Positions 14,559 to 36,167 of a stretch of DNA of 36,167 nt are shown here, in pieces. Source of the stretch: a virus (taxonomy: Duplodnaviria; Heunggongvirae; Uroviricota; Caudoviricetes); the IMG/VR virus record IMGVR_UViG_2657245430_000003; one strand, written 5' to 3'. A program made the translations under genes and the position numbers. Below the pieces are notes generated by a model, which saw only the letters and a list, made by a program, of their open reading frames with translations, did no database searches and had not been told where the DNA came from. Positions within the stretch are counted from its first letter, which is position 1. Each line of letters opens with the position of its first letter.

Positions 14559-15256
14559 TGCAGGATATCCGGCAGGAAACACTGAATGAATGCACCCGTG
14601 CGGAGCAGTCGGCCAGCGTGGTGCTCTGGGAAATCGATCTGACAGAGGTCGGTGGTGAACGTTATTTTTTCTGTAATGAGCAGAACGAAAAAGGTGAGCC
14701 GGTCACCTGGCAGGGGCGACAGTATCAGCCGTATCCCATTCAGGGGAGTGGTTTTGAACTGAATGGCAAAGGCACCAGTACGCGCCCCACGCTGATGGTT
14801 TCTAACCTGTACGGTATGGTCACCGGGATGGCGGAAGATCTACAGAGTCTGGTCGGCGGAACGGTGGTCCGGCGTAAGGTTTACGCCCGTTTTCTGGATG
14901 CGGTGAACTTCGTCAACGGAAACAGTGACGCCGATCCGGAGCAGGAGGTGATCAGCCGCTGGCGCATTGAGCAGTGCAGCGAACTGAGCGCGGTGAGTGC
15001 CTCTTTTGTACTGTCCACGCCGACGGAAACAGATGGCGCTGTTTTTCCGGGACGTATCATGCTGGCCAACACCTGCACCTGGACCTATCGCGGCGATGAG
15101 TGCGGTTATCACGGTCCGGCGGTCGCGGATGAATATGACCAGCCAACGTCCGACATCACGAAGGATAAATGCAGCAAATGCCTGAGTGGCTGTAAGTTTC
15201 GCAATAACGTCGGCAACTTTGGCGGCTTCCTTTCCATTAACAAACTTTCGCAGTAA
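14558..15256 (+). CDS. L: tail tip protein L
   Basis: 232 aa, MQDIRQETLNECTRAEQSASVVLWEIDLTEVGGERYFFCNEQ.... Start overlaps the M stop (TGATG). Confidence 0.93.
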   Translation: MQDIRQETLNECTRAEQSASVVLWEIDLTEVGGERYFFCNEQNEKGEPVTWQGRQYQPYPIQGSGFELNGKGTSTRPTLMVSNLYGMVTGMAEDLQSLVGGTVVRRKVYARFLDAVNFVNGNSDADPEQEVISRWRIEQCSELSAVSASFVLSTPTETDGAVFPGRIMLANTCTWTYRGDECGYHGPAVADEYDQPTSDITKDKCSKCLSGCKFRNNVGNFGGFLSINKLSQ

Positions 15257-15261
15257 ATCCC

Positions 15262-16005
15262 ATGACAGAGACAGAATCAGCGATTCTGGCGCACGCCCGG
15301 CGATGTGCTCCAGCGGAGTCGTGCGGCTTCGTGGTAAGAACGCCGGAGGGGGAAAGATATTTCCCCTGCGTGAATATCTCCGGTGAGCCGGAGGCGTATT
15401 TCCGTATGTCGCCGGAAGACTGGCTGCAGGCAGAGATGCAGGGTGAGATTGTGGCACTGGTCCACAGCCACCCCGGTGGTCTGCCCTGGCTGAGTGAGGC
15501 CGACCGGCGGCTGCAGGTGCAGAGTGATTTGCCGTGGTGGCTGGTCTGCCGGGGGGCGATTCACAAGTTCCGCTGTGTGCCACATCTTACCGGGCGGCGC
15601 TTTGAGCACGGGGTGACGGACTGTTACACGCTGTTCCGGGATGCTTACCATCTGGCGGGGATTGAGATGCCGGATTTTCATCGTGAGGATGACTGGTGGC
15701 GTCACGGTCAGAATCTCTATCTGGATAATCTGGAGGCCACAGGGCTGTATCAGGTGCCGTTGTCAGCGGCGCAGCCGGGCGATGTGCTGCTGTGCTGTTT
15801 TGGTTCATCGGTGCCGAATCATGCCGCCATTTACTGTGGTGACGGCGAGCTGCTGCACCATATTCCTGAACAACTGAGCAAACGAGAGAGGTATACCGAC
15901 AAATGGCAGCGACGCACACACTCCCTCTGGCGTCACCGGGCATGGCACGCATCTGCCTTTACGGGGATTTGCAACGATTTGGCCGCCGCATCGACCTTCG
16001 TGTGA
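15262..16005 (+). CDS. K: tail tip assembly protein K (MPN/JAMM and NlpC/P60 domains)
   Basis: 247-aa ORF with an HSHPGG...SEAD JAMM-like motif and a C-terminal Cys/His region. The C-terminus matches lambda K. Confidence 0.9.
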   Translation: MTETESAILAHARRCAPAESCGFVVRTPEGERYFPCVNISGEPEAYFRMSPEDWLQAEMQGEIVALVHSHPGGLPWLSEADRRLQVQSDLPWWLVCRGAIHKFRCVPHLTGRRFEHGVTDCYTLFRDAYHLAGIEMPDFHREDDWWRHGQNLYLDNLEATGLYQVPLSAAQPGDVLLCCFGSSVPNHAAIYCGDGELLHHIPEQLSKRERYTDKWQRRTHSLWRHRAWHASAFTGICNDLAAASTFV

Positions 16006-16253
16006 AAACGGGTGCCGAAGCCATCCGGGCGATGGCCACACAGCTCCCTGCGTTTCGTCAGAAGCTGAGCGACGGCTGGTATCAGGTGCGTATTGCCGGG
16101 CAGGATGTTAGCACGTCCGGATTAACGGCACAGTTACATGAGGCTCTGCCTGACGGCGCTGTGATTCATATTGTTCCCAGAGTCGCCGGGGCCAAGTCAG
16201 GTGGTGTATTCCAGATTGTCCTGGGAGCAGCCGCCATTGCCGGATCATTCTTT
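15903..16253 (+). CDS. I: tail tip assembly protein I, 3'-truncated at the N at 16254
   Basis: MAATHTLPLASPGMARICLYGDLQRFGRRIDLRVKTGAEAIRAMATQ..., overlapping the K 3' end as in lambda. The reading frame is cut by the scaffold join at 16254. Confidence 0.8.
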
Positions 16254-16254
16254 N

Positions 16255-16944
16255 ATTCCACAGGAAACACATCATGAGACGACACGCCTCACTCAGTCAG
16301 CCCAGGTGGTGCTCTGGGAAATCGATCTGACAGAGGTCGGTGGTGAACGTTATTTTTTCTGTAATGAGCAGAACGAAAAAGGTGAGCCGGTTACCTGGCA
16401 GGGGCGGCAGTATCAGGCATACCCCATTCAGGGGACGGGATTTGAACTGAACGGCAAGGGCAGTGCTGCCCGTCCGACACTGACGGTTTCTAACCTGCAC
16501 GGAATGGTCACCGGGATGGCGGAAGACCTGCAGAGTCTGGTCGGCGGAACGGTGGTCAGGCGTAAGGTTTACGCCCGTTTTCTGGATGCGGTGAACTTCG
16601 TCAACGGAAACAGCGACGCCGATCCGGAACAGGAGGTGATCAGCCGCTGGCGCATCGAGCAGTGCAGCGAACTGAGCGCGGTCAGTGCCTCTTTTGTGCT
16701 GGCCACACCAACGGAGACGGATGGCGCGGTTTTCCCGGGGCGTATCATGCTGGCGAATACCTGTATGTGGACTTACCGTTCTGATGAGTGTGGTTACACG
16801 GGCAGGGCAGTGGCTGACGAGTTCGACAAACCAACGACGGATATCCGGAAGGACAAATGCAGCAAGTGTATGCGCGGGTGTGAGTTGCGCAACAATACCG
16901 GTAATTTCGGCGGTTTCCTTTCCATCAATAAACTTTCTCAGTAA
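16255..16944 (+). CDS. L: tail tip protein L, second diverged copy, 5'-partial (contig starts near codon 5)
   Basis: ..QETHHETTRLTQSAQVVLWEIDLTEVGGERYFFCNEQ..., with scattered substitutions relative to the first L at 14558-15256. Begins immediately after the N at 16254. Confidence 0.8.
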   Translation: MPQETHHETTRLTQSAQVVLWEIDLTEVGGERYFFCNEQNEKGEPVTWQGRQYQAYPIQGTGFELNGKGSAARPTLTVSNLHGMVTGMAEDLQSLVGGTVVRRKVYARFLDAVNFVNGNSDADPEQEVISRWRIEQCSELSAVSASFVLATPTETDGAVFPGRIMLANTCMWTYRSDECGYTGRAVADEFDKPTTDIRKDKCSKCMRGCELRNNTGNFGGFLSINKLSQ

Positions 16945-16948
16945 ATCC

Positions 16949-17692
16949 ATGACACAGACAGAATCAGCGATTCTGGCGCACGCCCGGCGATGTGCGCCAG
17001 CGGAGTCGTGTGGCTTCGTGGTAAGAACGCCGGAGGGAGACAGGTATCTTCCCAGCGAGAATATCTCCGGTGAGCCGGAGGAACGGTTCCGGATGGCTCC
17101 GGAGGACTGGCTGCGGGCACAAATGCAGGGTGAGATTGTGGCGCTGGTCCACAGTCATCCCGGTGGTCTGCCCTGGCTGAGTGAGGCTGACCGGCGGCTG
17201 CAGGTGCAGAGTGATTTGCCGTGGTGGCTGGTCTGCCGGGGGGCGATTCACAAGTTCCGCTGTGTGCCACATCTTACCGGGCGGCGCTTTGAGCACGGGG
17301 TGACGGACTGTTACACGCTGTTCCGGGATGCTTACCATCTGGCGGGGATTGAGATGCCGGATTTTCATCGTGAGGATGACTGGTGGCGTCACGGTCAGAA
17401 TCTCTATCTGGATAATCTGGAGGCCACAGGGCTGTATCAGGTGCCGTTGTCAGCGGCGCAGCCGGGCGATGTGCTGCTGTGCTGTTTTGGTTCATCGGTG
17501 CCGAATCATGCCGCCATTTACTGTGGTGACGGCGAGCTGCTGCACCATATTCCTGAACAACTGAGCAAACGAGAGAGGTATACCGACAAATGGCAGCGAC
17601 GCACACACTCCCTCTGGCGTCACCGGGCATGGCACGCATCTGCCTTTACGGGGATTTGCAACGATTTGGCCGCCGCATCGACCTTCGTGTGA
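16949..17692 (+). CDS. K: tail tip assembly protein K, second copy
   Basis: MTQTESAILAHARRCAPAESCGFVVRTPEGDRYLPSENISGEPEERF..., 247 aa, start ATG at 16949. Confidence 0.85.
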   Translation: MTQTESAILAHARRCAPAESCGFVVRTPEGDRYLPSENISGEPEERFRMAPEDWLRAQMQGEIVALVHSHPGGLPWLSEADRRLQVQSDLPWWLVCRGAIHKFRCVPHLTGRRFEHGVTDCYTLFRDAYHLAGIEMPDFHREDDWWRHGQNLYLDNLEATGLYQVPLSAAQPGDVLLCCFGSSVPNHAAIYCGDGELLHHIPEQLSKRERYTDKWQRRTHSLWRHRAWHASAFTGICNDLAAASTFV

Positions 17693-18261
17693 AAACGGGT
17701 GCCGAAGCCATCCGGGCGATGGCCACACAGCTCCCTGCGTTTCGTCAGAAGCTGAGCGACGGCTGGTATCAGGTGCGTATTGCCGGGCAGGATGTTAGCA
17801 CGTCCGGATTAACGGCACAGTTACATGAGGCTCTGCCTGACGGCGCTGTGATTCATATTGTTCCCAGAGTCGCCGGGGCCAAGTCAGGTGGTGTATTCCA
17901 GATTGTCCTGGGAGCAGCCGCCATTGCCGGATCATTCTTTACCGCCGGAGCCACCCTTGCAGCATGGGGGGCTGCCATTGGTGCCGGTGGTATGACCGGC
18001 ATTCTGTTTTCTCTCGGTGCCAGTATGGTGCTCGGCGGTGTGGCTCAGATGCTGGCACCGAAAGCCAGAACTCCCCGCACACAGACAACGGATAACGGTA
18101 AGCAGAACACCTATTTCTCCTCACTGGATAACATGGTTGCCCAGGGCAATGTTATGCCTGTTCTGTATGGTGAAATGCGCGTGGGGTCACGTGTGGTATC
18201 TCAGGAGATCAGCACGGCAGACGAAGGGGACGGTGGTCAGGTTGTGGTGATTGGTCGCTGA
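17590..18261 (+). CDS. I: tail tip assembly protein I, second copy, full length
   Basis: 223 aa, the lambda gpI length. Gly/Ala-rich hydrophobic centre and conserved C-terminus ...VVSQEISTADEGDGGQVVVIGR. Confidence 0.88.
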   Translation: MAATHTLPLASPGMARICLYGDLQRFGRRIDLRVKTGAEAIRAMATQLPAFRQKLSDGWYQVRIAGQDVSTSGLTAQLHEALPDGAVIHIVPRVAGAKSGGVFQIVLGAAAIAGSFFTAGATLAAWGAAIGAGGMTGILFSLGASMVLGGVAQMLAPKARTPRTQTTDNGKQNTYFSSLDNMVAQGNVMPVLYGEMRVGSRVVSQEISTADEGDGGQVVVIGR

Positions 18262-18321
18262 TGCAAAATGTTTTATGTGAAATCGCCTCCGGGCGGTTTT
18301 ATCGTTTATGGAGCATGACGA

Positions 18322-18722
18322 ATGGGTAAAGGCAGCAGTAAGGGGCATACCCCGCGCGAAGCGAAGGACAACCTGAAGTCCACGCAGCTGCTGAGTGTGA
18401 TCGATGCCATCAGCGAAGGGCCGGTTGAAGGTCCGGTGGATGGATTAAAAAGCGTGCTGCTGAACAGTACGCCGGTGCTGGACAGTGAGGGGAATACCAA
18501 CATCTCCGGCGTCACGGTGGTGTTCCGGGCAGGTGAGCAGGAGCAGTCACCGCCGGAGGGATTTGAATCCTCCGGCTCCGAGACGGTGCTGGGTACGGAA
18601 GTGAAATATGACACGCCGATCACCCGGACCATCACGTCGGCAAACATTGACCGACTGCGTTTTACCTTCGGTGTACAGGCACTGGTGGAAACCACCTCAA
18701 AGGGAGACAGGAATCCGTCTGA
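18322..18722 (+). CDS. J: tail tip / host-specificity protein J, N-terminal fragment, truncated at the N at 18723
   Basis: [48 protein letters not shown].... After the N the frame continues into K sequence (EIVALVHSHPGG), which is a join artefact. Confidence 0.8.
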
Positions 18723-18723
18723 N

Positions 18724-19284
18724 GAGATTGTGGCGCTGGTCCACAGTCATCCCGGTGGTCTGCCCTGGCTGAGTGAGGCCGACCGGCGGCTGCAGGTGCA
18801 GAGTGATTTGCCGTGGTGGCTGGTCTGCCGGGGGGCGATTCACAAGTTCCGCTGTGTGCCGCATCTCACCGGGCGGCGCTTTGAGCACGGGGTGACGGAC
18901 TGTTACACGCTGTTCCGGGATGCTTATCATCTGGCAGGGATTGAGATGCCGGATTTTCATCGCGGGGATGACTGGTGGCGTAACGGTCAGAATCTCTATC
19001 TTGACAATATGGAGGTGACGGGTTTTTACCGTGTCGCACTGACAGAGGCACAGCCGGGCGATGTGCTGCTGTGCTGTTTTGGTTCATCGGTGCCGAATCA
19101 TGCCGCCATTTACTGTGGTGACGGCGAGCTGCTGCACCATATTCCTGAACAACTGAGCAAACGAGAGAGGTATACCGACAAATGGCAGCGACGCACACAC
19201 TCCCTCTGGCGTCACCGGGCATGGCACGCATCTGCCTTTACGGGGATTTGCAACGATTTGGCCGCCGCATCGACCTTCGTGTGA
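18724..19284 (+). CDS. K: tail tip assembly protein K, 5'-truncated fragment (residues about 62-247)
   Basis: EIVALVHSHPGGLPWLSEADRRLQVQSDLPWWLVCRG... to the stop at 19284. Starts right after the N. Confidence 0.8.
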   Translation, partial: EIVALVHSHPGGLPWLSEADRRLQVQSDLPWWLVCRGAIHKFRCVPHLTGRRFEHGVTDCYTLFRDAYHLAGIEMPDFHRGDDWWRNGQNLYLDNMEVTGFYRVALTEAQPGDVLLCCFGSSVPNHAAIYCGDGELLHHIPEQLSKRERYTDKWQRRTHSLWRHRAWHASAFTGICNDLAAASTFV

Positions 19285-19853
19285 AAACGGGTGCCGAAGC
19301 CATCCGGGCGATGGCCACACAGCTCCCTGCGTTTCGTCAGAAGCTGAGCGACGGCTGGTATCAGGTGCGTATTGCCGGGCAGGATGTTAGCACGTCCGGA
19401 TTAACGGCACAGTTACATGAGGCTCTGCCTGACGGCGCTGTGATTCATATTGTTCCCAGAGTCGCCGGGGCCAAGTCAGGTGGTGTATTCCAGATTGTCC
19501 TGGGAGCAGCCGCCATTGCCGGATCATTCTTTACCGCCGGAGCCACCCTTGCAGCATGGGGGGCTGCCATTGGTGCCGGTGGTATGACCGGCATTCTGTT
19601 TTCTCTCGGTGCCAGTATGGTGCTCGGCGGTGTGGCTCAGATGCTGGCACCGAAAGCCAGAACTCCCCGTACACAGACAACGGATAACGGTAAGCAGAAC
19701 ACCTATTTCTCCTCACTGGATAACATGGTTGCCCAGGGCAATGTTATGCCTGTTCTGTATGGTGAAATGCGCGTGGGGTCACGTGTGGTATCTCAGGAGA
19801 TCAGCACGGCAGACGAAGGGGACGGTGGTCAGGTTGTGGTGATTGGTCGCTGA
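19182..19853 (+). CDS. I: tail tip assembly protein I, third copy
   Basis: 223 aa, almost identical to the copy at 17590-18261. Confidence 0.85.
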   Translation: MAATHTLPLASPGMARICLYGDLQRFGRRIDLRVKTGAEAIRAMATQLPAFRQKLSDGWYQVRIAGQDVSTSGLTAQLHEALPDGAVIHIVPRVAGAKSGGVFQIVLGAAAIAGSFFTAGATLAAWGAAIGAGGMTGILFSLGASMVLGGVAQMLAPKARTPRTQTTDNGKQNTYFSSLDNMVAQGNVMPVLYGEMRVGSRVVSQEISTADEGDGGQVVVIGR

Positions 19854-19913
19854 TGCAAAATGTTTTATGTGAAATCGCCTCCGGGCGGTTTTATCGTTTA
19901 TGGAGCATGACGA

Positions 19914-21286
19914 ATGGGTAAAGGCAGCAGTAAGGGGCATACCCCGCGCGAAGCGAAGGACAACCTGAAGTCCACGCAGCTGCTGAGTGTGATCGATGCC
20001 ATCAGCGAAGGGCCGGTTGAAGGTCCGGTGGATGGATTAAAAAGCGTGCTGCTGAACAGTACGCCGGTGCTGGACAGTGAGGGGAATACCAACATCTCCG
20101 GCGTCACGGTGGTGTTCCGGGCAGGTGAGCAGGAGCAGTCACCGCCGGAGGGATTTGAATCCTCCGGCTCCGAGACGGTGCTGGGTACGGAAGTGAAATA
20201 TGACACGCCGATCACCCGGACCATCACGTCGGCAAACATTGACCGACTGCGTTTTACCTTCGGTGTACAGGCACTGGTGGAAACCACCTCAAAGGGAGAC
20301 AGGAATCCGTCTGAAGTTCGCCTGCTGGTTCAGATACAGCGTAACGGTGGCTGGGTGACGGAAAAAGACATCACCATTAAGGGCAAAACCACCTCGCAGT
20401 ATCTGGCCTCGGTGGTGGTGGATAACCTGCCGCCGCGCCCGTTTAATATCCGGATGCGCAGAATGACGCCGGACAGCACCACAGACCAGCTGCAGAACAA
20501 AACGCTCTGGTCGTCATACACCGAAATCATCGATGTGAAACAGTGCTACCCGAACACGGCACTGGTCGGCGTACAGGTGGATTCGGAGCAGTTCGGCAGC
20601 CAGCAGGTGAGCCGTAATTATCATCTTCGCGGGCGCATTCTGCAGGTGCCGTCGAACTATAACCCGCAGACGCGGCAATACAGCGGTATCTGGGACGGAA
20701 CGCTTAAGCCAGCATACAGCAACAACATGGCCTGGTGTCTGTGGGATATGCTGACCCATCCGCGCTATGGCATGGGGAAACGTCTTGGTGCGGCAGATGT
20801 GGATAAATGGGCGCTGTATGTCATCGGCCAGTACTGTGACCAGTCGGTGCCGGACGGCTTTGGCAGCACGGAGCCGCGCATCACCTGTAATGCCTGGCTG
20901 ACCACACAGCGCAAGGCGTGGGATGTGCTCAGTGATTTCTGCTCGGCGATGCGCTGTATGCCGGTATGGAACGGGCAGACGCTGACGTTCGTGCAGGACC
21001 GACAGTCGGATAAGGTGTGGGCCTATAACCGCAGTAATGTGGTGATGCCGGATGATGGCGCGCCGTTCCGCTACAGTTTCAGCGCCCTGAAAGACCGCCA
21101 TAATGCCGTTGAGGTGAACTGGATTGACCCGGATAACGGCTGGGAGACGGCGACAGAGCTTGTGGAGGATACGCAGGCCATTGCCCGTTACGGTCGTAAT
21201 GTCACGAAGATGGATGCCTTTGGCTGTACCAGCCGGGGGCAGGCACACCGCGCCGGGCTGTGGCTGATTAAAACGGAACTGCTGGA
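19914..21286 (+). CDS. J: J protein, N-terminal about 458 aa, truncated at the N-run 21287-21297
   Basis: Lambda-like J N-terminus through ...[11 protein letters not shown], then 11 Ns. Confidence 0.8.
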
Positions 21287-21297
21287 NNNNNNNNNNN

Positions 21298-21821
21298 TGC
21301 CCTGGCTGAGTGAGGCCGACCGGCGGCTGCAGGTGCAGAGTGATTTGCCGTGGTGGCTGGTCTGCCGGGGGGCGATTCACAAGTTCCGCTGTGTGCCGCA
21401 TCTCACCGGGCGGCGCTTTGAGCACGGGGTGACGGACTGTTACACGCTGTTCCGGGATGCTTATCATCTGGCAGGGATTGAGATGCCGGATTTTCATCGC
21501 GGGGATGACTGGTGGCGTAACGGTCAGAATCTCTATCTTGACAATATGGAGGTGACGGGTTTTTACCGTGTCGCACTGACAGAGGCACAGCCGGGCGATG
21601 TGCTGCTGTGCTGTTTTGGTTCATCGGTGCCGAATCATGCCGCCATTTACTGCGGTGACGGCGGGCTGCTGCACCATATTCCTGAACAACTGAGCAAACG
21701 AGAGAGGTACACCGACAAATGGCAGCGACGCACACACTCCCTCTGGCGTCACCGGGCATGGCGCGCATCTGCCTTTACGGGGATTTACAACGATTTGGTC
21801 GCCGCATCGACCTTCGTGTGA
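21298..21821 (+). CDS. K: tail tip assembly protein K, 5'-truncated fragment
   Basis: (L)PWLSEADRRLQVQ... to the stop. The C-terminus has RASAFTGIYNDLVAASTFV, as in lambda, unlike the other copies (HASAFTGICNDLAAASTFV). Confidence 0.8.
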
Positions 21822-22360
21822 AAACGGGGGCTGAAGCCATCCGGGCACTGGCCACACAGCTCCCGGCGTTTCGTCAGAAACTGAGTGACGGCTGGTATCA
21901 GGTGCGCATTGCCGGGCGTGATGCAGGTGAAACCGAATTGTCTGCCCGTCTTAATGAGCCGCTGGCAAATGGTGCAGTGATCCACATAGTACCGCGTCTG
22001 GTGGGAGCTAAAAGTGGCGGTGTGTTTCAGGCGGTGCTGGGGGCGGCTGTTATGGCGGTTGCTATATGGATGCCGGGGGTAGGAATTATGGCGAGTAATC
22101 TGCTGTTTTCTCTCGGTGCCAGTATGACGCTTGGCGGTGTTGCACAGATGCTGGCACCGAAAGCCAGAACTCCCCGTACACAGACAACGGATAACGGTAA
22201 GCAGAACACCTATTTCTCCTCACTGGATAACATGGTTGCCCAGGGCAATGTTCTGCCCGTTCTGTACGGTGAAATGCGCGTGGGGTCACGTGTGGTTTCT
22301 CAGGAGATCAGCACGGCAGACGAAGGGGACGGTGGTCAGGTTGTGGTGATTGGTCGCTGA
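21719..22360 (+). CDS. I: tail tip assembly protein I, variant 213-aa allele
   Basis: N- and C-termini conserved. The central segment (AGRDAGETELSARLNEPLANGAVIHIVPRLVGAKSGGVFQAVLGAAVMAVAIWMPGVGIMASNLL) differs from the other I copies, a mosaic pattern. Confidence 0.85.
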   Translation: MAATHTLPLASPGMARICLYGDLQRFGRRIDLRVKTGAEAIRALATQLPAFRQKLSDGWYQVRIAGRDAGETELSARLNEPLANGAVIHIVPRLVGAKSGGVFQAVLGAAVMAVAIWMPGVGIMASNLLFSLGASMTLGGVAQMLAPKARTPRTQTTDNGKQNTYFSSLDNMVAQGNVLPVLYGEMRVGSRVVSQEISTADEGDGGQVVVIGR

Positions 22361-22420
22361 TGCAAAATGTTTTATGTGAAACCGCCTGCGGGCGGTTTTG
22401 TCGTTTATGGAGCGTGAGGA

Positions 22421-24985
22421 ATGGGTAAAGGCAGCAGTAAGGGGCATACCCCGCGCGAAGCGAAGGACAACCTGAAATCCACGCAGTTGCTGAGTGTGAT
22501 TGATGCCATCAGCGAAGGGCCGGTTGACGGTCCGGTGGATGGATTAAAAAGCGTGCTGCTGAACGGTACGCCGGTCCTGGACAGCGAGGGGAAGACAAAC
22601 TTTTCCGGTGTTACGGTGGTGTTCCGTGCAGGTGAGCAGGAGCAGACACCGCCGGAGGGTTTTGAATCCTCCGGCTCCGAGACGGTGCTGGGTACGGAAG
22701 TGAAATATGACACGCCGATCACCCGGACCATCACGTCGGCAAACATCGACCGTCTGCGCCTGACCTTCGGTGTGCAGGCACTGGTGGAAACCACCTCAAA
22801 GGGTGACCGGAATCCGTCGGAAGTCCGCCTGCTGGTTCAGATACAGCGTAACGGTGGCTGGGTGACGGAAAAAGACATCACCATTAAGGGCAAAACCACC
22901 TCGCAGTATCTGGCCTCGGTGGTGGTGGATAACCTGCCGCCGCGCCCGTTTAATATCCGGATGCGCAGAATGACGCCGGACAGCACCACAGACCAGCTGC
23001 AGAACAAAACGCTCTGGTCGTCATACACCGAAATCATCGATGTGAAACAGTGCTACCCGAACACGGCGCTGGTCGGCGTGCAGGTGGATTCAGAGCAGTT
23101 CGGTAACCAGCAGGTGAGTCGCAATTATCATCTTCGCGGGCGCATTCTGCAGGTGCCGTCGAACTATAACCCGCAGACGCGGCAATACAGCGGTATCTGG
23201 GACGGAACGCTTAAGCCAGCATACAGCAACAACATGGCCTGGTGTCTGTGGGACATGCTCACTCATCCGCGCTACGGCATGGGGAAACGTCTTGGTGCGG
23301 CAGATGTGGATAAATGGGCGCTGTATGTCATCGGCCAGTACTGCGACCAGTCAGTGACGGACGGATTTGGCGGCACGGAGCCGCGCATCACCTGTAACTC
23401 TTACCTGACCACACAGCGTAAGGCGTGGGATGTTCTCAGTGATTTCTGCTCGGCGATGCGCTGTATGCCGGTATGGAACGGACAGATGCTGACGTTCGTG
23501 CAGGACCGACCGTCGGATAAGGTGTGGACCTATAACCGCAGTAATGTGGTGATGCCGGATGATGGCGCGCCGTTCCGCTACAGTTTCAGCGCCCTGAAAG
23601 ACCGCCATAATGCCGTTGAGGTGAACTGGATTGACCCAGATAACGGCTGGGAGACGGCGACAGAGCTTGTGGAGGATACGCAGGCCATTGCCCGTTACGG
23701 TCGTAATGTCACGAAGATGGATGCCTTTGGCTGTACCAGCCGGGGGCAGGCACACCGAGCCGGGCTGTGGCTGATTAAAACGGAACTGCTGGAAACGCAG
23801 ACCGTGGACTTCAGCGTGGGCGCAGAAGGGCTTCGCCATGTACCGGGTGATGTCATTGAAATCTGCGATGATGATTATGCCGGTATCAGCACCGGTGGTC
23901 GCGTACTGGCGGTGAACAGCCAGACCCGGACGCTGACGCTCGACCGTGAAATCACGCTGCCGTCCTCCGGTACCACGCTGATAAGCCTGGTTGACGGAAG
24001 TGGCAATCCGGTCAGCGTGGAGGTCCAGTCCGTCACCGACGGCGTGAAGGTGAAAGTGAGCCGGGTTCCTGACGGCGTTGCAGAATACAGCGTGTGGGGG
24101 CTGAAGCTGCCGACGCTGCGCCAGCGTCTGTTCCGCTGCGTGAGTATCCGTGAGAACGACGACGGCACGTATGCCATCACCGCCGTGCAGCATGTGCCGG
24201 AAAAAGAGGCCATCGTGGATAACGGGGCACACTTTGACGGTGACCGGCGCGGCACGGTGAATGGTGTCACGCCGCCAGCGGTGCAGCATCTGACCGCCGA
24301 AGTCACCGCAGACAGCGGGGAATATCAGGTGCTGGCGCGATGGGACACGCCGAAGGTGGTGAAGGGTGTGAGCTTCCTGCTTCGCCTGACCGTGGCAGCG
24401 GACGACGGCAGTGAGCGGCTGGTCAGCACAGCCAGGACGACGGAAACCACATACCGCTTCAGGCAGCTGGCGCTGGGGAATTACAGTCTGACAGTCCGGG
24501 CGGTAAATGCCCGGGGGCAGCAGGGCGATCCGGCGTCGGTATCGTTCCGGATTGCGGCACCGGCAGCGCCTGTCACTATTGAACTGATACCGGGGTATTT
24601 TCAGATAACGGCGGTCCCGAAACTGGCTGTATATGACCCGACGGTGCAGTTTGAGTTCTGGTTTTCGGAAAAGCGGATTGCGGATATCAGGCAGGTTGAA
24701 ACCAGCGCCCGCTATCTTGGCACGGCGCTGTACTGGATAGCCGCCAGTATCAATATCAGGCCGGGCCATGATTATTATTTTTACGTTCGCAGTGTGAACA
24801 CCGTTGGCAAATCGGCATTTGTGGAGGCCATCGGTCGGGCGAGCGATGATGCAGAAGGTTATCTGAATTTTTATAAAGGGTTGATCAATAAAACGCATCT
24901 CGGCAAGGAGTTGTGGACGCAGATTGATAACGGTCAGCTTGCGCCGGACCTGACTGAAATCAGGACGTCCATTACGAATGTCAGC
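22421..24985 (+). CDS. J: J protein, N-terminal about 855 aa, truncated at the N at 24986
   Basis: Longest continuous J segment. Ends ...[12 protein letters not shown] at the join. Confidence 0.85.
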
Positions 24986-24986
24986 N

Positions 24987-26424
24987 GGCTGGGAGACGGC
25001 GACAGAGCTTGTGGAGGATACGCAGGCCATTGTCCGTTACGGTCGTAACGTCACGAAGATGGATGCCTTTGGCTGTACCAGCCGGGGGCAGGCACACCGC
25101 GCCGGGCTGTGGCTGATTAAAACGGAACTGCTGGAGACGCAGACCGTGGATTTCAGCGTGGGTGCTGAAGGGCTTCGTCATGTACCGGGCGATGTCATTG
25201 AAATCTGCGATGATGACTATGCCGGTATCCGCACCGGCGGGCGCGTGCTGGCGGTGAACAGCCAGACCCGGACGCTGACGCTCGACCGTGAAATCACGCT
25301 GCCGTCCTCCGGTACCACGCTGATAAGCCTGGTTGACGGAAGTGGCAATCCGGTCAGCGTGGAGGTCCAGTCCGTCACCGACGGCGTGAAGGTGAAAGTG
25401 AGCCGGGTTCCTGACGGCGTTGCAGAATACAGCGTGTGGGGGCTGAAGCTGCCGACGCTGCACCAGCGATTGTTCCGCTGCGTGAGTATCCGTGAGAACG
25501 ACGACGGCACGTATGCCATCACCGCCGTGCAGCATGTGCCGGAAAAAGAAGCCATCGTGGATAACGGGGCGCACTTTGACGGCGACCAGAGCGGCACGGT
25601 GAATGGTGTCACGCCGCCAGCGGTGCAGCACCTGACTGCCGAAGTCACCGCAGACAGCGGGGAATATCAGGTGCTGGCGCGATGGGACACGCCGAAGGTG
25701 GTGAAGGGTGTGAGCTTCCTGCTTCGCCTGACCGTGGCAGCGGACGACGGCAGTGAGCGGCTGGTCAGCACAGCCAGGACGACGGAAACCACATACCGCT
25801 TCAGGCAGCTGGCGCTGGGGAATTACAGTCTGACAGTCCGGGCGGTAAATGCCCGGGGGCAGCAGGGCGATCCGGCGTCGGTATCGTTCCGGATTGCCGC
25901 ACCGGCAGCGCTGTCGCGGATTGAGCTGACGCCGGGCTATTTTCAGATAACCGCCACGCCGCATCTTGCGGTTTATGATCCGACGGTACAGTTTGAGTTC
26001 TGGTTCTCGGAAAAGCGGATTGCGGATATCAGGCAGGTTGAAACCACAGCACGCTATCTTGGCACGGCGCTGTACTGGATAGCCGCCAGTATCAATATCA
26101 AACCGGGCCATGATTATTACTTTTATATCCGCAGTGTGAACACCGTTGGCAAATCGGCATTCGTGGAGGCTGTTGGTCAGCCGAGTGATGATGCATCCGG
26201 TTATCTGGATTTTTTCAAAGGCGAGATAGGGAAAACCCATCTGGCTCAGGAGCTGTGGACGCAGATTGATAACGGTCAGCTTGCGCCTGACCTGGCTGAA
26301 ATCAGGACGTCCATTACGGATGTCAGCAATGAAATCACGCAGACCGTCAATAAGAAACTGGAAGACCAGAGTGCGGCAATTCAGCAGATACAGAAGGTTC
26401 AGGTTGATACAAATAATAACCTGA
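24987..26424 (+). CDS. J: J protein internal fragment (lambda J about residue 405 to 880), bounded by Ns on both sides
   Basis: [29 protein letters not shown] ... [11 protein letters not shown]. It re-covers J sequence already present at 23640-24985, with substitutions. Confidence 0.75.
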
Positions 26425-26425
26425 N

Positions 26426-27902
26426 CAGCACGGCCCGGACGACGGAAACCACTTACCGCTTCACACAACTGGCGCTGGGGAACTACAGGCTGACAGTCCG
26501 GGCAGTAAATGCGTGGGGGCAGCAGGGCGATCCGGCGTCGGTATCGTTCCGGATTGCGGCACCGGCAGCGCCTGTCACTATTGAACTGATACCGGGGTAT
26601 TTTCAGATAACGGCGGTCCCGAAACTGGCTGTATATGACCCGACGGTGCAGTTTGAGTTCTGGTTTTCGGAAAAGCGGATTGCGGATATCAGGCAGGTTG
26701 AAACCACAGCACGCTATCTTGGCACGGCGCTGTACTGGATAGCCGCCAGTATCAATATCAAACCGGGCCATGATTATTACTTTTATATCCGCAGTGTGAA
26801 CACCGTTGGCAAATCGGCATTCGTGGAGGCTGTTGGTCAGCCGAGTGATGATGCATCCGGTTATCTGGATTTTTTCAAAGGCGAGATAGGGAAAACCCAT
26901 CTGGCTCAGGAGCTGTGGACGCAGATTGATAACGGTCAGCTTGCGCCGGACCTGACTGAAATCAGGACGTCCATTACGAATGTCAGCAATGAAATCACGC
27001 AAACCGTCAATAAAAAACTGGAAAATCAGAGTGCTGCAATCCAGCAGATACAGAAAGTTCAGGTTGATACAAATAATAACCTGAACAGCATGTGGGCTGT
27101 GAAGCTGCAACAGATGAAGGACGGACGCCTTTATATTGCGGGTATCGGTGCCGGTATTGAGAATACGCCAGCAGGAATGCAGAGTCAGGTGCTGCTGGCG
27201 GCAGACAGGATTGCGATGATTAATCCTGCGAATGGCAACACAAAGCCGATGTTTGTTGGTCAGGGCGATCAGATATTCATGAACGACGTGTTCCTGAAAT
27301 GCCTGACGGCTCCGACCATTACCAGCGGCGGTAATCCTCCGGCATTTTCCCTGACACCTGGCGGACGGCTGACGGCGAAAAATGCCGATATCAGCGGTAA
27401 CGTGAACGCGAACTCCGGGACGCTCAACAACGTCACGATTAATAAGAACTGTCGGGTTCTGGGAAAATTGTCCGCGAACCAGATTGAAGGCGATCTCGTT
27501 AAAACAGTGGGCAAACCTTTCCCACGGGACTCCCGGGCACCGGAGAGGTGGCCATCAGGGACCATTACCGTCAGGGTTTATGACGATCAGCCGTTTGATC
27601 GGCAAATTGTTATTCCCGCGGTGGCGTTTCGCGGTGCTAAACATGAGCGGAAGAATAACAATATTTATTCGTCATGCCGCCTGATAGTGAAGAAAAACGG
27701 TGCTGAAATTTATAACCGAACGACCCTGGATAATACGCTGATATATACGGGTGTTATTGATATGCCTGCCGGTCACGGTCACATGACGCTGGAGTTTTCT
27801 GTATCGGCATGGCTGGTAAATGGCTGGTATCCCACAGCAAGTATCAGCGATTTGCTGGTTGTGGTGATGAAGAAAGCCACTGCAGGCATCACGATTAGCT
27901 GA
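26426..27902 (+). CDS. J: J protein C-terminal fragment (receptor-binding region, variant 1) ending at the native stop
   Basis: [33 protein letters not shown]... to ...[14 protein letters not shown]. The C-terminal roughly 150 aa differ from the variant at 29191-31040 and from lambda. Confidence 0.8.
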
Positions 27903-31680: not shown

Positions 31681-31691
31681 GTGGGGTGAAT

Positions 31692-34600
31692 ATGGCAGTA
31701 AAGATTTCAGGTGTACTGAAAGACGGCACAGGAAAACCGGTACAGAACTGCACAATCCAGCTGAAAGCAAAACGTAACAGCACCACGGTGGTGGTGAACA
31801 CGCTGGCCTCAGAAAATCCGGATGAAGCCGGGCGTTACAGCATGGACGTTGAGTACGGTCAGTACAGCGTTATTCTGTTGGTGGAAGGATTCCCGCCGTC
31901 ACATGCCGGGACCATCACCGTGTATGAAGATTCCCGACCCGGTACGCTGAATGATTTTCTCGGTGCCATGACGGAGGATGATGCCCGTCCGGAGGCACTG
32001 CGCCGTTTTGAGCTGATGGTGGAAGAGGTGGCGCGTAACGCGTCCGCGGTGGCACAGAACACGGCAGCCGCGAAGAAATCAGCCAGCGATGCCAGCACAT
32101 CAGCCCGTGAGGCGGCAACCCATGCGACTGATGCTGCAGATTCAGCACGTGCAGCCAGCACGTCAGCCGGACAGGCCGCTTCGTCGGCTCAGTCAGCGTC
32201 TTCCAGCGCAGGAACGGCATCAACAAAGGCCACTGAAGCCTCAAAAAGTGCTGCCGCTGCAGAGTCCTCAAAAAGCGCGGCGGCTACCAGTGCCGGTGCG
32301 GCGAAAACGTTAGAAACGAATGCGGCAGCGTCACAACAATCAGCAGCCACTTCTGCATCCACCGCGACCACGAAAGCGTCAGAAGCTGCCACCTCAGCCC
32401 GGGATGCGTCGGCTTCAAAAGAGGCGGCAAAATCATCAGAAACGAACGCATCATCAAGCGCCAGTAGCGCAGCTTCCTCGGCGACGGCGGCTGCAAATTC
32501 TGCGAAGGCGGCCAAAACGTCCGAGACGAACGCCAGGTCTTCTGAAACGGCAGCGGGACAGAGTGCCTCAGCTGCGGCAGGCTCAAAAACAGCGGCTGCG
32601 TCGTCTGCCAGCGCCGCGTCAACAAGTGCCGGGCAGGCCTCAGCCAGTGCCACCGCCGCCGGAAAATCGGCAGAAAGCGCCGCATCATCCGCTTCAACAG
32701 CCACAACGAAGGCTGGCGAAGCCACTGAGCAGGCCACGGCAGCAGCGAGGTCAGCTTCCGCAGCGAAGACATCCGAAACGAACGCGAAAGCGTCGGAAAC
32801 CCGTGCAGAATCCTCAAAAACGGCTGCCGCATCGTCCGCCAGTTCGGCGGCGTCATCGGCATCATCGGCGTCTGCTTCAAAAGATGAGGCGACCAGACAG
32901 GCGTCAGCAGCGAAGGGCAGCGCCACGACGGCATCCACGAAGGCGACAGAGGCTGCTGGTAGTGCGACGGCAGCAGCTCAGAGCAAAAGTACGGCGGAAT
33001 CTGCAGCAACGCGCGCTGAGACAGCGGCAAAACGGGCAGAGGATATTGCATCCGCCGTGGCGCTTGAGGATGCGAGCACGACGAAAAAGGGGATAGTACA
33101 GCTCAGTAGTGCGACTAACAGCACTTCCGAGTCACTGGCGGCAACACCAAAAGCCGTTAAGGCCGCGTATGACCTGGCTAACGGGAAATACACCGCACAG
33201 GATGCAACGACAGCACAGAAAGGGATAATCCAGCTAAGCAGCGCGACCAACAGCACGTCTGAAACGCTGGCGGCAACGCCAAAGGCAGTAAAAGCAGCCA
33301 ATGACAATGCTGAGAAACGTCTGCAGAAAGATCAGAACGGTGCGGATATCCCTGGCAAAGACACCTTTACGAAAAATATTGGTGCCTGCCGTGCCTTCGG
33401 TGGGTCAGTAAGCACAACAACAGGAAACTGGACGACTGCACAGTTTATCGAGTGGCTGGATTCTCAGGGAGCATTTAACCATCCATACTGGATGTGCAAG
33501 GGTTCCTGGTCTTATGGCAATAATAAAATCATTACTGATACTGGCTGCGGTAATATTCATCTCGCCGGAGCTGTCATTGAAGTAATGGGGATAAAGTCAG
33601 CGATGACGATCCGCATTACCACTCCGACCACATCCAGCGGTGGCGGAACAACCAACGCCCAGTTTACCTATATTAATCACGGAACAGATTATTCACCTGG
33701 CTGGCGAAGGGACTATAACTCCAGAAATAAGCCAACGGCATCAGAGATCGGGGCGCTACCGTCAGGTGGAACAGCAGTATCATCAGTTAATCTGGCTTCA
33801 AAAGGTCGGGTAGCCGCGCTGACAGACAATACGCAGGGGGCAGCAGGTCTTGAGTTATACGAGGTGTATAACAACGGATATCCAACAGCGTATGGAAATA
33901 TCATTCACCTGAAAGGGATGACAGCCGTTGGCGAAGGTGAGTTACTCATCGGCTGGAGTGGTACAAGCGGTGCTCATGCTCCGGCATTTATTCGTTCACG
34001 ACGGGATACGACCGACGCAAACTGGTCGCCGTGGGCGCAGCTTTACACCTCGGCTCATCCTCCTGCAGAGTTTTATCCAGTCGGTGCACCAATCCCGTGG
34101 CCATCAGATACCGTTCCGTCTGGTTATGCCCTGATGCAGGGGCAGACTTTTGACAAATCTGCTTACCCGAAACTTGCAGCCGCTTATCCGTCAGGCGTGA
34201 TCCCTGATATGCGTGGCTGGACGATTAAGGGCAAGCCCGCCAGTGGTCGTGCCGTATTGTCTCAGGAACAGGATGGCATTAAATCGCACACCCACAGCGC
34301 CAGCGCATCCAGTACGGATTTGGGGACGAAAACCACATCGTCGTTTGATTACGGCACTAAATCCACGAATAACACCGGGGCGCATACGCACAGTCTGAGC
34401 GGCTCTACAAGTTCAGCTGGGGCCCACCAACATAGTCAGACTGGGCCCAGAACGAATAGCGGGAGTCAACCTACTGGAATGTTTCCGGCAGGGAGTACTC
34501 AAGTTAGCGGGACTAATCAGGTTGGTATCAGTGGCTCATTAACCAGTGGCACCTCCCAATGGGTAGGTAAATCATCTTCAGAAGGAAACCATACACACTC

Positions 34601-34775
34601 ACTGTCCGGCACAGCAGCATCTGCGGGTGCACACGCGCATACTGTCGGTATTGGTGCTCATACGCACTCTGTTGCGATTGGTTCACATGGACACACCATC
34701 ACCGTTAACGCTGCTGGTAACGCGGAAAACACCGTCAAAAACATCGCATTTAACTATATTGTGAGGCTCGCATAA
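31692..34775 (+). CDS. stf: side tail fibre protein Stf (mosaic)
   Basis: 1027 aa from the ATG at 31692. Lambda-like N-terminus [36 protein letters not shown], a long Ala/Ser/Thr low-complexity shaft, and a C-terminus with GAHTHSLSG / [15 protein letters not shown] His-rich repeats ending ...[18 protein letters not shown] as in lambda Stf. Confidence 0.9.
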
Positions 34776-35356
34776 TGGCATTCAGAATGAGTGAACAAGC
34801 ACGGACCATAAAAATTTATAACCTGCTGGCCGGAACTAATGAATTTATTGGTGAAGGTGACGCATATATTCCGCCTCATACAGGTCTGCCTGCAAACAGT
34901 ACCGATATTGCACCGCCAGATATTCCGGCTGGTTTCGTGGCTGTTTTCAACAGTGATGAGTCATCGTGGCATCTCGTTGAAGATCATCGGGGTAAAACGG
35001 TTTATGACGTGGCTTCCGGCGACGCGTTATTTATTTCTGAACTCGGCTCATTACCGGAAAATGTCACCTGGTTATCCCCGGAAGGGGAGTTTCAGAAGTG
35101 GAACGGCACAGCCTGGGTGAAGGATACGGAAGCAGAAAAACTGTTCCGGATCCGGGAGGCGGAAGAAACAAAAAACAGCCTGATGCAGGTAGCCAGTGAG
35201 CATATAGCGCCGCTTCAGGATGCTGTGGATCTGGAGATCGCAACGGAGAAAGAAACCTTGTTGCTGGAAGCTTGGAAAAAGTATCGGGTGTTGCTGAACC
35301 GTGTTGATACATCAACTGCACCGGATATTGAATGGCCAGTAGCACCTATAGGGTAA
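34775..35356 (+). CDS. tfa: tail fibre assembly protein Tfa
   Basis: 193 aa, [51 protein letters not shown].... Start overlaps the stf stop (TAATG). Confidence 0.9.
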
Positions 35357-35440
35357 ATTCGTAATGATTACCTAAATACGTTATTCTTTTGTTAAAAAAG
35401 TGATTTTGCTATAGGTAGGGAGTATGTTCTTGGATTAAGA

Positions 35441-35473
35441 ATAAAAAATCGCCATGAAAGAGCTTCATGGCGA
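35441..35473 (-). terminator. candidate minus-strand intrinsic terminator
   Basis: Perfect 9-bp inverted repeat CGCCATGAA-AGAGC-TTCATGGCG at 35450-35472. On the minus strand it is followed by ATTTTTTAT. There is no T-run on the plus strand. Confidence 0.45.
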
Positions 35474-36105
35474 GTACATAAACGTACAAAATGTGATGAA
35501 AGTAGAGTGGCGTAAGCCACTATATTAAGATATGACAATAGCGAAGAAAAGTAAATAACATTTTATGGACGTTTAATTGTTAATTATAAAAACTAGAGTG
35601 CCCGATATTGTTTATCTTGCTTTAAAATAATGTACTCAAACCAAATTTTTGAGCTAAAAGCTCAAATAATATAAATGCAATAATAATGTTTAATAAGACA
35701 ATTAGCTTGCTTTGTATTTTCATTTCGGAATACTGTTAAGTAACTTTGATGACCCTAACAATAGATCGGAATTTTCTTAGAGTCAATGGTCACTGTTTTT
35801 GCTTGCAAAGCAAATGTTTTGGTGGTTATAAGTCGTCTTAATATAGTCACGCATGCAACTTGTTCCATGCGGAGATTAAAGATTGGAATATAACGCGAAG
35901 ATGGAATTAAATTACATTTGCAATAATTAATTTATTATTACTCAATAATTACCGATATTATTATTGTAAATTAATCATTAGAATGCAAAAAGAAATGTAA
36001 CGGCAAAATAAGAGGACGATAGCTGAGAAAAAAGCGTGCTTTCCCAATCTGGGGCAAATCACGTCTGAATGACACCTGAAAACAGGTGGTAGCCTCAAGA
36101 AGGCT

Positions 36106-36167
36106 GGTGATGCTGCCAACTTACTGATTTAGTGTATGATGGTGTTTTTGAGGTGCTCCAGTGGCTT
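36106..36167 (+). mobile_element. IS1 left end (terminal inverted repeat and first nucleotides of insA), truncated by the window edge
   Basis: GGTGATGCTGCCAACTTACTGATTTAGTGTATGATGGTGTTTTTGAGGTGCTCCAGTGGCTT matches the IS1 left terminus from memory. The GTG at 36161 would be the insA start. Confidence 0.8.

Follow-up and report, generated by a model that had tools for sequence, protein, structure and literature searches.

The window analysed here, the 36,167-nucleotide (nt) IMG/VR record IMGVR_UViG_2657245430_000003, covers the late/tail region of a lambdoid prophage, in which stf (31686-34775) is followed by the tail fibre assembly gene tfa (34775-35356, plus strand; the product is called a tail fiber assembly protein in relatives) and then by the 749-base pair (bp) stretch that is our subject (35357-36105). 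Judged by comparison with relatives, this stretch opens the b region of a lambda-like prophage and is a mosaic of three pieces (breakpoints 35356/35357, 35934/35935 and 36020/36021). Its first piece, Segment A (35357-35934), is a 578-bp AT-rich module that has tfa as its left border, begins exactly at the tfa stop codon and carries on the minus strand a 33-codon open reading frame (ORF; MKIQSKLIVLLNIIIAFILFELLAQKFGLSTLF, 35622-35723), which encodes a predicted single-pass membrane peptide resembling YncL of Escherichia coli. The guanine-plus-cytosine (GC) content falls from 0.50-0.52 over tfa to 0.27-0.36 from 35300 on, the module itself lying at 0.27-0.35 compared with 0.50-0.64 in stf and tfa, and all ORFs in 35357-36105 are shorter than 60 amino acids (aa), the longest having 52 and 48 aa. 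Composition and ORF scans thereby confirm two statements of an earlier note on this DNA, namely that GC drops sharply after tfa and that no ORF of 60 aa or more follows; the 33-codon ORF that it listed is likewise present, with the translation it gave.

The same note had considered that this ORF might be chance in AT-rich DNA, an idea refuted by its intactness in all variants, by purifying selection and by its homology to YncL. Segment A occurs in four lineages (~99, 96, 91 and 78.5% identity), and the ORF is intact in 30/30 unique variants of the segment, which together encode only four protein variants, as well as in all 20 metagenome loci that span it. Five of the six other small ORFs (37, 48, 35, 31 and 26 aa) gain stops or frameshifts in several lineages. 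Compared with the 78.5% lineage, the 33-codon ORF shows 18 differences, 11 of them synonymous (over 19.7 sites) and seven non-synonymous (over 79.3 sites), a ratio of non-synonymous to synonymous changes per site (pN/pS) of 0.16; compared with the 91% lineage there are four synonymous changes and one non-synonymous (pN/pS 0.06). Among the six frames the ORF frame has the lowest pN/pS and is the sole one without stops, and random mutation sets matched on the transition/transversion mix equalled its pattern in 0.15% of trials (permutation P 0.0015). In the lineage alignment a 5-bp indel sits directly 3' of the ORF stop codon, the ORF itself being free of indels. Conservation of the ORF and selection on it at the protein level are shown by these data. 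Three other candidate genes were rejected: the 37-aa and 52-aa minus-strand ORFs called by phage annotators, the former being broken in several lineages, and a 24-aa plus-strand ORF in the conserved block, which is open in 29/30 variants but in which all four changes are non-synonymous.

YncL (NF000537) is the sole NCBIfam match of the peptide, recovered with two independent variants (E=1.3e-5 and 3.7e-5; 25.0 and 23.5 bits) over profile positions 1-28 of 30. BLASTP against K-12 YncL gives 39% identity and 64% positives over 28 ungapped residues (E=2e-7), while none of ten controls (the reversed sequence and nine shuffles) matched YncL. The shared residues are colinear (M1, S5, V9-L10, N12, A16, L19-F20, L22 and [KR]26-F27-G28) and 11/31 positions are identical. 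On these alignments the peptide is homologous to YncL, and the profile score indicates a relative, not an equivalog. One hydrophobic helix is predicted (best 18-aa hydropathy window 2.87; grand average of hydropathy 1.51). YncL itself has 31 aa, resides in the inner membrane and is induced by heat shock, in minimal medium and in stationary phase under sigma-S (PMC12542507, PMC5437024). Depolarisation of the membrane and silencing of metabolism by YncL were demonstrated recently; its production leads to sublethal membrane depolarisation, nucleoid condensation, sensitivity to pore-forming peptides and lowered viability (PMC12542507). It is also an RseP substrate in vivo (PMC10470546). The Salmonella yncL gene, which is sigma-S dependent, was originally listed as the non-coding small RNA (sRNA) STnc1110 (PMC5437024), and therefore provides a precedent for a short, sRNA-like transcript that codes for such a peptide. 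An exhaustive phmmer search of 1.84 billion representatives returned only the peptide itself and a frameshift variant, and full-text literature searches found neither the peptide nor an sRNA at such a position. A rare 43-aa variant (MKIQSKLIVLLNIIIAFILFELLAQKIWFEYIILKQDKQYRAL), found in two short Logan contigs only (L057, L058), departs from the 33-aa form only past residue 26 and looks like a frameshift.

At least 815 of 5426 complete E. coli genomes (~15%) contain homologues of Segment A, which is joined to differing tfa alleles at att-lambda, at the Qin/ydfJ site and at a sit-adjacent site, three prophage contexts in all. The 96% lineage is a remnant at the Qin/ydfJ site, the 78.5% lineage is a remnant by a Bcr/CflA gene and sitABCD, and the 91% lineage comes from viral contigs. 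Among complete E. coli genomes, 280 contain the full 749-bp stretch at 98.5-99.6% identity, as do the viable phages mEp332, PhiR70_1 and ev099. In relatives, tfa is followed by ~1.5 kb of unannotated AT-rich DNA, an AraC-family gene, insertion sequence (IS) remnants and attR by ybhB-bioA; the phage genomes have the same order, but their final part is attP-int-xis. Since the prophage runs on past the stretch to the AraC gene, the IS remnants and attR, the stretch lies at the start of the b (cargo) region and not at the prophage end. The proposal that this is an accessory region is borne out, as it corresponds to the b/moron region of the lambda-like prophage that related genomes carry at att-lambda. 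The companion proposal of a distal junction fails for the present prophage, which continues to attR, and survives only for 36021-36105, which is the arm of an older, fossil serU junction.

This distribution bears on the view that the stretch is filler, that is, AT-rich, H-NS-silenced DNA upstream of the AraC gene together with recombination scars, whose conservation would stem from recent spread and gene conversion. The GC content of 27-35%, the mosaic structure with its breakpoints and the 96-100% identity of most Segment A copies would all suit filler, as would the position of the stretch 1.5 kb upstream of the regulator in IS1-free relatives. Conservation is uneven, however, unlike the expectation for filler, and the synonymous excess and the 30/30 intact ORF persist at 78.5% overall identity while other ORFs break. 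Segment A is moreover present or absent independently of neighbouring genes, is kept in prophage remnants stripped of nearly everything else and occurs in contexts without the AraC-family gene. We therefore regard filler as very unlikely, and the related idea of decayed DNA does not apply to 35357-35934, which is conserved and under selection.

Beyond these carriers, the module was absent from K-12 (Qin end) and from E. coli B REL606 (att-lambda) when these were checked. A 19-mer from the conserved block gave a chance hit only among 185,579 species genomes searched for occurrences outside E. coli, and in metagenomes it recovered the same four lineages and one chance hit, with nothing further. 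Copies at the Qin and sit sites carry a second, direct tfa 3' fragment (~100 bp) to the right of Segment A (L006 5580-5640; L007 5546-5645), which reads as a recombination scar. At the K-12 Qin end by ydfJ (L009 10891-11306) there are other small genes, ynfT (37 aa, hydrophobic) and ydfK, and small hydrophobic peptides at the ydfJ-type end of lambdoid prophages may be a recurring theme.

Upstream of the ORF on the minus strand lies a predicted sigma-70-like promoter (35758-35786), composed of TTGACT (35786-35781), a 17-nt spacer and TATTGT (35763-35758). Its predicted start at ~35751 would give a 5' untranslated region (UTR) of ~28 nt. The -35 hexamer is the same in five aligned sequences and is TTGATT in one close variant (L019); the -10 hexamer is TATCGT in the 78.5% lineage. 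At the other end of the unit, the scan scores 35473-35441 as an intrinsic terminator, in agreement with the minus-strand terminator suggested before, and finds two terminator-like sites where 0.4 would be expected. The terminator (35441-35473, minus strand) has an 11-bp stem (10 perfect pairs and one G-U) with five G-C pairs, followed by U6; its core is the hairpin TCGCCATGAA/TTCATGGCGA (35449-35458/35464-35473), with perfect 10-nt arms and a 5-nt loop, next to which A6 at 35443-35448 provides the U-run on the minus strand. The stem is invariant across variants.

Between the ORF and the end of the terminator, identity to the 78.5% lineage falls to 50-65% just past the ORF stop and then climbs to the terminator block, reaching 93-97% over 35447-35530 as against 50-70% in the flanks; among close variants, too, polymorphic columns are rarest in this 3' block. 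The minus-strand RNA of 35438-35625 folds with a z-score of -4.7. The consensus fold contains a long-range helix (35558-35566/35486-35494), a GUGGC/GCCAC hairpin (35506-35521; AGTGGC/GCCACT in the DNA, absent from the list in the earlier note) and the terminator, and together these elements delimit a conserved structured 3' RNA of ~135 nt (35441-35576, minus strand). These data show a terminator and a 3' RNA that is both conserved and stably folded. Pair 35559/35493 changes from G-C to G-U to A-U across lineages (one compensatory pair), a C-to-U change in the hairpin yields U-G on the minus strand where it would yield A-C on the plus strand, and the remaining changes in the block sit in loops; the substitutions are thus predicted to be structure-neutral on the minus strand. 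A possible -10 element of its own, TATAAT at 35588-35583 (TACAAT in the divergent lineage), would set a start at ~35576, with a poor -35. Two permissive Rfam scans gave nothing over threshold within the stretch; the sub-threshold matches, driven by the terminator, were to MicC (22.8 bits vs 90), Esr41 (15.6 vs 102) and Aar. A small RNA from the 3' block is possible.

The fact that nucleotide conservation peaks in this block, and not in the ORF, speaks for a purely non-coding RNA locus, in which the minus-strand transcript would be an sRNA and the ORF would stay untranslated. The stable fold, the limited covariation and a 3' end that looks suited to Hfq binding (hairpin, A/U-rich stretch, terminator and U-run) point the same way, as does the missing Shine-Dalgarno motif of the ORF. 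Against this stand the substitution pattern of the ORF, which is that of a translated gene, the homology of the peptide to a known protein and the avoidance of the ORF by indels. Peptide and sRNA functions are not mutually exclusive. We consider a locus without a coding function improbable.

A type I toxin-antitoxin (TA)-like unit, in which a membrane toxin would be held in check by an antisense plus-strand RNA, by late-operon read-through or by the 3' structure, deserves the same scrutiny, the likeness to type I toxin peptides having been remarked on before. That likeness holds as far as the product is concerned: the peptide has 33 aa, is hydrophobic and is predicted to form a single helix, and production of its relative YncL depolarises the membrane and reduces viability (PMC12542507), which makes a toxin-like way of working conceivable. 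The missing Shine-Dalgarno motif and the structured mRNA are reminiscent of translationally repressed toxin mRNAs. A weak plus-strand promoter-like site (35532-35561) would yield an antisense RNA across the ORF, and read-through from tfa would likewise give one. The likeness does not extend to sequence families or to an evident antisense RNA. Pfam, PHROGs and PADLOC return no match, NCBIfam returns YncL only and none of Hok, Ldr, Ibs, Sho, TisB, Zor or DinQ, and the Rfam scans find no antitoxin RNA family. The sole plus-strand terminator candidate (35798-35814) is AT-only and not conserved. Complementarity of the 3' RNA to the region of the peptide start is no better than in shuffled controls, a result for which the idea of self-regulation was dropped as well, and no antitoxin is known for YncL itself. 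A TA-like mode of action is accordingly doubtful in our estimation, and rather little of our confidence goes to it.

Perfect hairpins are over-represented in the stretch as a whole: with stems of >=6 and loops of 3-12 we count 11, compared with 3.2 +/- 1.8 expected from 500 dinucleotide shuffles, none of which gets to 11, and five have >=3 G/C per arm, compared with 0.26 expected (0/500 shuffles). The four inverted repeats picked out previously are all present once their coordinates are slightly corrected (35449-35473, 35648-35666, 35850-35871 and 36073-36088), and they differ in what related prophages have retained. The peptide ORF and the terminator stem are kept there; the pairing of two other hairpins is lost. 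The first of these, TTTGAGCT/AGCTCAAA (35648-35655/35659-35666), is a perfect 8-bp hairpin within ORF codons F20-K26; its minus-strand pairing is broken by two A-C mismatches in the 78.5% lineage, and it is rejected as a functional element and probably incidental. The second, CGCATGCAAC/GTTCCATGCG (35850-35859/35862-35871), upstream of the peptide promoter, is imperfect (90% complementary); its sequence block is conserved and its pairing is not, as Qin-site and sit-site variants alter both arms without compensation. The hairpin CACCTG/CAGGTG (36073-36078/36083-36088) belongs to Segment C.

Taken together, the module is probably a moron cassette comprising a promoter, a gene for a YncL-like membrane peptide, a structured 3' UTR with a possible second role as an sRNA, and a terminator, a reading in which we have fair though far from complete confidence. 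It shows promoter and terminator motifs (both predicted), a deviant GC content, independent presence and absence, and a position between phage modules. The cassette (35357-35934) would be read towards tfa, on the strand opposite the late operon. In lysogens the promoter at 35786-35758 would drive a transcript whose 33-codon gene (35723-35622), translated without a Shine-Dalgarno motif, would yield a single-pass peptide inserted into the inner membrane. A conserved structured 3' tail of ~180 nt would follow, the final ~135 nt of which could also exist as a separate or processed sRNA with regulatory activity, and the terminator at 35473-35441 would end the transcript ~90 bp from the tfa stop codon. 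Judged by its relative YncL, the peptide may enter the inner membrane of the lysogen and there lower the membrane potential or modulate stress physiology. The linker (35935-36020) and the serU arm (36021-36105) are recombination history; an ancestor acquired the arm along with chromosomal DNA, and IS1 truncated the arm here.

Several observations weigh against the moron cassette. As had already been pointed out, the start codon has no Shine-Dalgarno motif (upstream sequence ...AACAGUAUUCCGAAAUG), and in this the ORF is unlike K-12 yncL; the ORF is annotated by neither gene caller nor curator in the records seen, and the exact peptide was found only twice, unnamed, in a collection of 15 billion proteins. 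The YncL scores stay under the curated equivalog cut-off (25 vs 35 bits), and the U-run of the terminator is broken (GCUUUCUUAUU) in the 91% and 78.5% lineages. Only four lineages are known, all of them E. coli prophages, and the number of independent changes behind the selection and covariation statistics is consequently small. The Qin-site copy is a hybrid, with a left part like that of the window and a right part (from ~35845) like that of the sit-site copy; since recombination is evident in the module, a gene-conversion patch could imitate part of the 3' conservation peak.

A more elaborate version would make the unit a dual-function prophage RNA, in which a depolarising YncL-like peptide is combined with an Hfq-dependent 3' sRNA that regulates host genes, and in which antisense read-through from the late operon silences the unit during lytic growth. 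The peptide might then alter stress tolerance of the lysogen, bring about a persistence-like silencing or exclude superinfecting phages. We think this unlikely.

If the moron cassette holds, ~15% of the complete E. coli genomes, together with three or more viable lambdoid phages, contain a conserved small-protein gene missed by annotation pipelines, and YncL would thereby gain its first mobile relative on a prophage. It would offer a simple system in which to ask what YncL-like peptides do for a lysogen, while the conserved 3' RNA is a candidate prophage sRNA and the fossil serU junction records the assembly of b-region cargo through aberrant excision and IS1 activity. The finding is a modest one, with no new principle or new kind of system.

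Of the remaining two pieces of the mosaic, Segment B (35935-36020) is an AT-rich linker with two copies of CAATAATTA and AT-only inverted repeats; it is confined to the att-lambda phage group, and its joint with Segment A at 35934/35935 is a mosaic breakpoint. Segment C (36021-36105) belongs to a fossil serU attachment site, of whose phage-side arm it keeps the first 85 bp up to the cut by IS1. This assignment follows from IS1-free relatives, in which Segment C extends for ~190 bp more to the 3' 62 nt of tRNA-Ser(CGA) and, beyond that fragment, to 278 bp matching, at 97% identity, K-12 chromosomal DNA downstream of serU; in one such relative the serU fragment and the chromosomal piece (L001 6860-7199) correspond to K-12 2043529-2043190 at 97%. 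EC958, whose prophage does sit in serU, has the same arm, as does an O157 prophage, and Segment C is common at prophage ends (O157, O26, O111, ST131 and APEC O1). Contiguity with serU is seen in the IS1-free relatives and in EC958, and in the window IS1 replaces the continuation. A fossil serU arm joined to host DNA is the signature of aberrant excision by a serU-integrated ancestor. On its minus strand Segment C has three hairpins, the last followed by U6, the fold prediction placing an imperfect hairpin plus U6 at ~36065-36026.

The right border is formed by the left end of IS1 (GGTGATGCTGCCAACTTACTG..., 36106-36167, plus strand), which runs off the window. Strain 2009C-3133 has the identical junction, with an annotated IS1A transposase, and there IS1 (L002 6750-7517) stands in place of 550 bp found in IS1-free relatives (L001 6750-7299). 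Because the lost 550 bp include the serU fragment, an IS1-associated adjacent deletion is indicated. In O157:H7 MB41-1 (L008 3834-4260) a RefSeq 55-aa "capsid protein" is located directly before a serU-type arm; with a second copy of its sequence ~400 bp downstream, it seems to be a duplicated att or chromosomal fragment and no capsid gene.

Among the neighbouring genes, the one after the AT-rich spacer encodes a 247-aa YdeO/GadX-like AraC-family regulator (L001 7506-8249; L003 6506-7249), which scores 148.9 bits against the YdeO model, far under the cut-off, and is similar to the prophage-borne acid-resistance regulators AppY, PatE and Psr. The IS1 of the window's lineage lies ~200 bp upstream of it. 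Rfam reports an IS009 match (218 bits; gathering score 117) at 35118-35316 on the plus strand, wholly within the 3' coding end of tfa, and the same tfa end is found again as an orphan fragment behind Segment A in other prophages; this "RNA family" therefore seems to be conserved tfa coding sequence and no RNA in its own right. Further upstream, at ~14600-27000, the window contains several families of long direct repeats (>=300 nt, 85-100% identical, three to four copies, ~1.3-2.5 kb spacing) that traverse tail-tip genes and in which ORFs of 223, 121 and 129 aa recur. A tandem amplification, an unusual tail gene in repeated form or an assembly problem could account for them.

Compared with known systems, the module comes closest in its product to YncL (K-12 b4598; Salmonella STM14_1932). 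Both peptides have ~31-33 aa and one transmembrane helix, align colinearly without gaps and contain one strongly hydrophobic 18-residue window each, and both genes have a short, sRNA-sized transcript (PMC5437024 for YncL; predicted for the module). Unlike yncL, the module gene is prophage-borne, lies outside the patD-ortT locus and is followed by a long, conserved 3' tail that shares no DNA similarity with the yncL locus. In its organization the module resembles lambdoid morons such as lambda lom and bor, being a self-contained promoter-gene-terminator unit of a composition unlike that of the late genes, placed between the tail-fibre genes and att and shuffled among phages; it differs from them in its orientation opposite to the late operon, its 33-aa product and its lack of annotation. 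YnfT/YdfK of K-12 Qin offer a parallel in that a small hydrophobic protein gene occupies the same prophage end and chromosomal site as the Qin-site copies, without sequence similarity to the module. With the type I toxins Hok, Ldr, Ibs, ShoB, TisB, ZorO and DinQ the peptide shares small size, hydrophobicity, a membrane location as predicted and a depolarising relative, but it has neither a sequence match to these families nor a long structured 5' UTR. The 3' RNA recalls CpxQ/SroC-type 3' UTR-derived or Hfq-type sRNAs in its terminal hairpin with U-run, its A/U-rich single strand and the internal hairpin before it, and, as with CpxQ and SroC, this 3' part is the best-conserved section of the predicted transcript; unlike the Hfq-type sRNAs, it fits no Rfam family. 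Segment C, finally, may resemble tI/sib of the lambda P arm by position, as it lies on the phage side of the att core, ~190-230 bp off, with hairpins and a U-run on the strand that int transcripts would use; it differs in deriving from serU-integrating phages and in being, here, a fossil, uncoupled from int and truncated by IS1.

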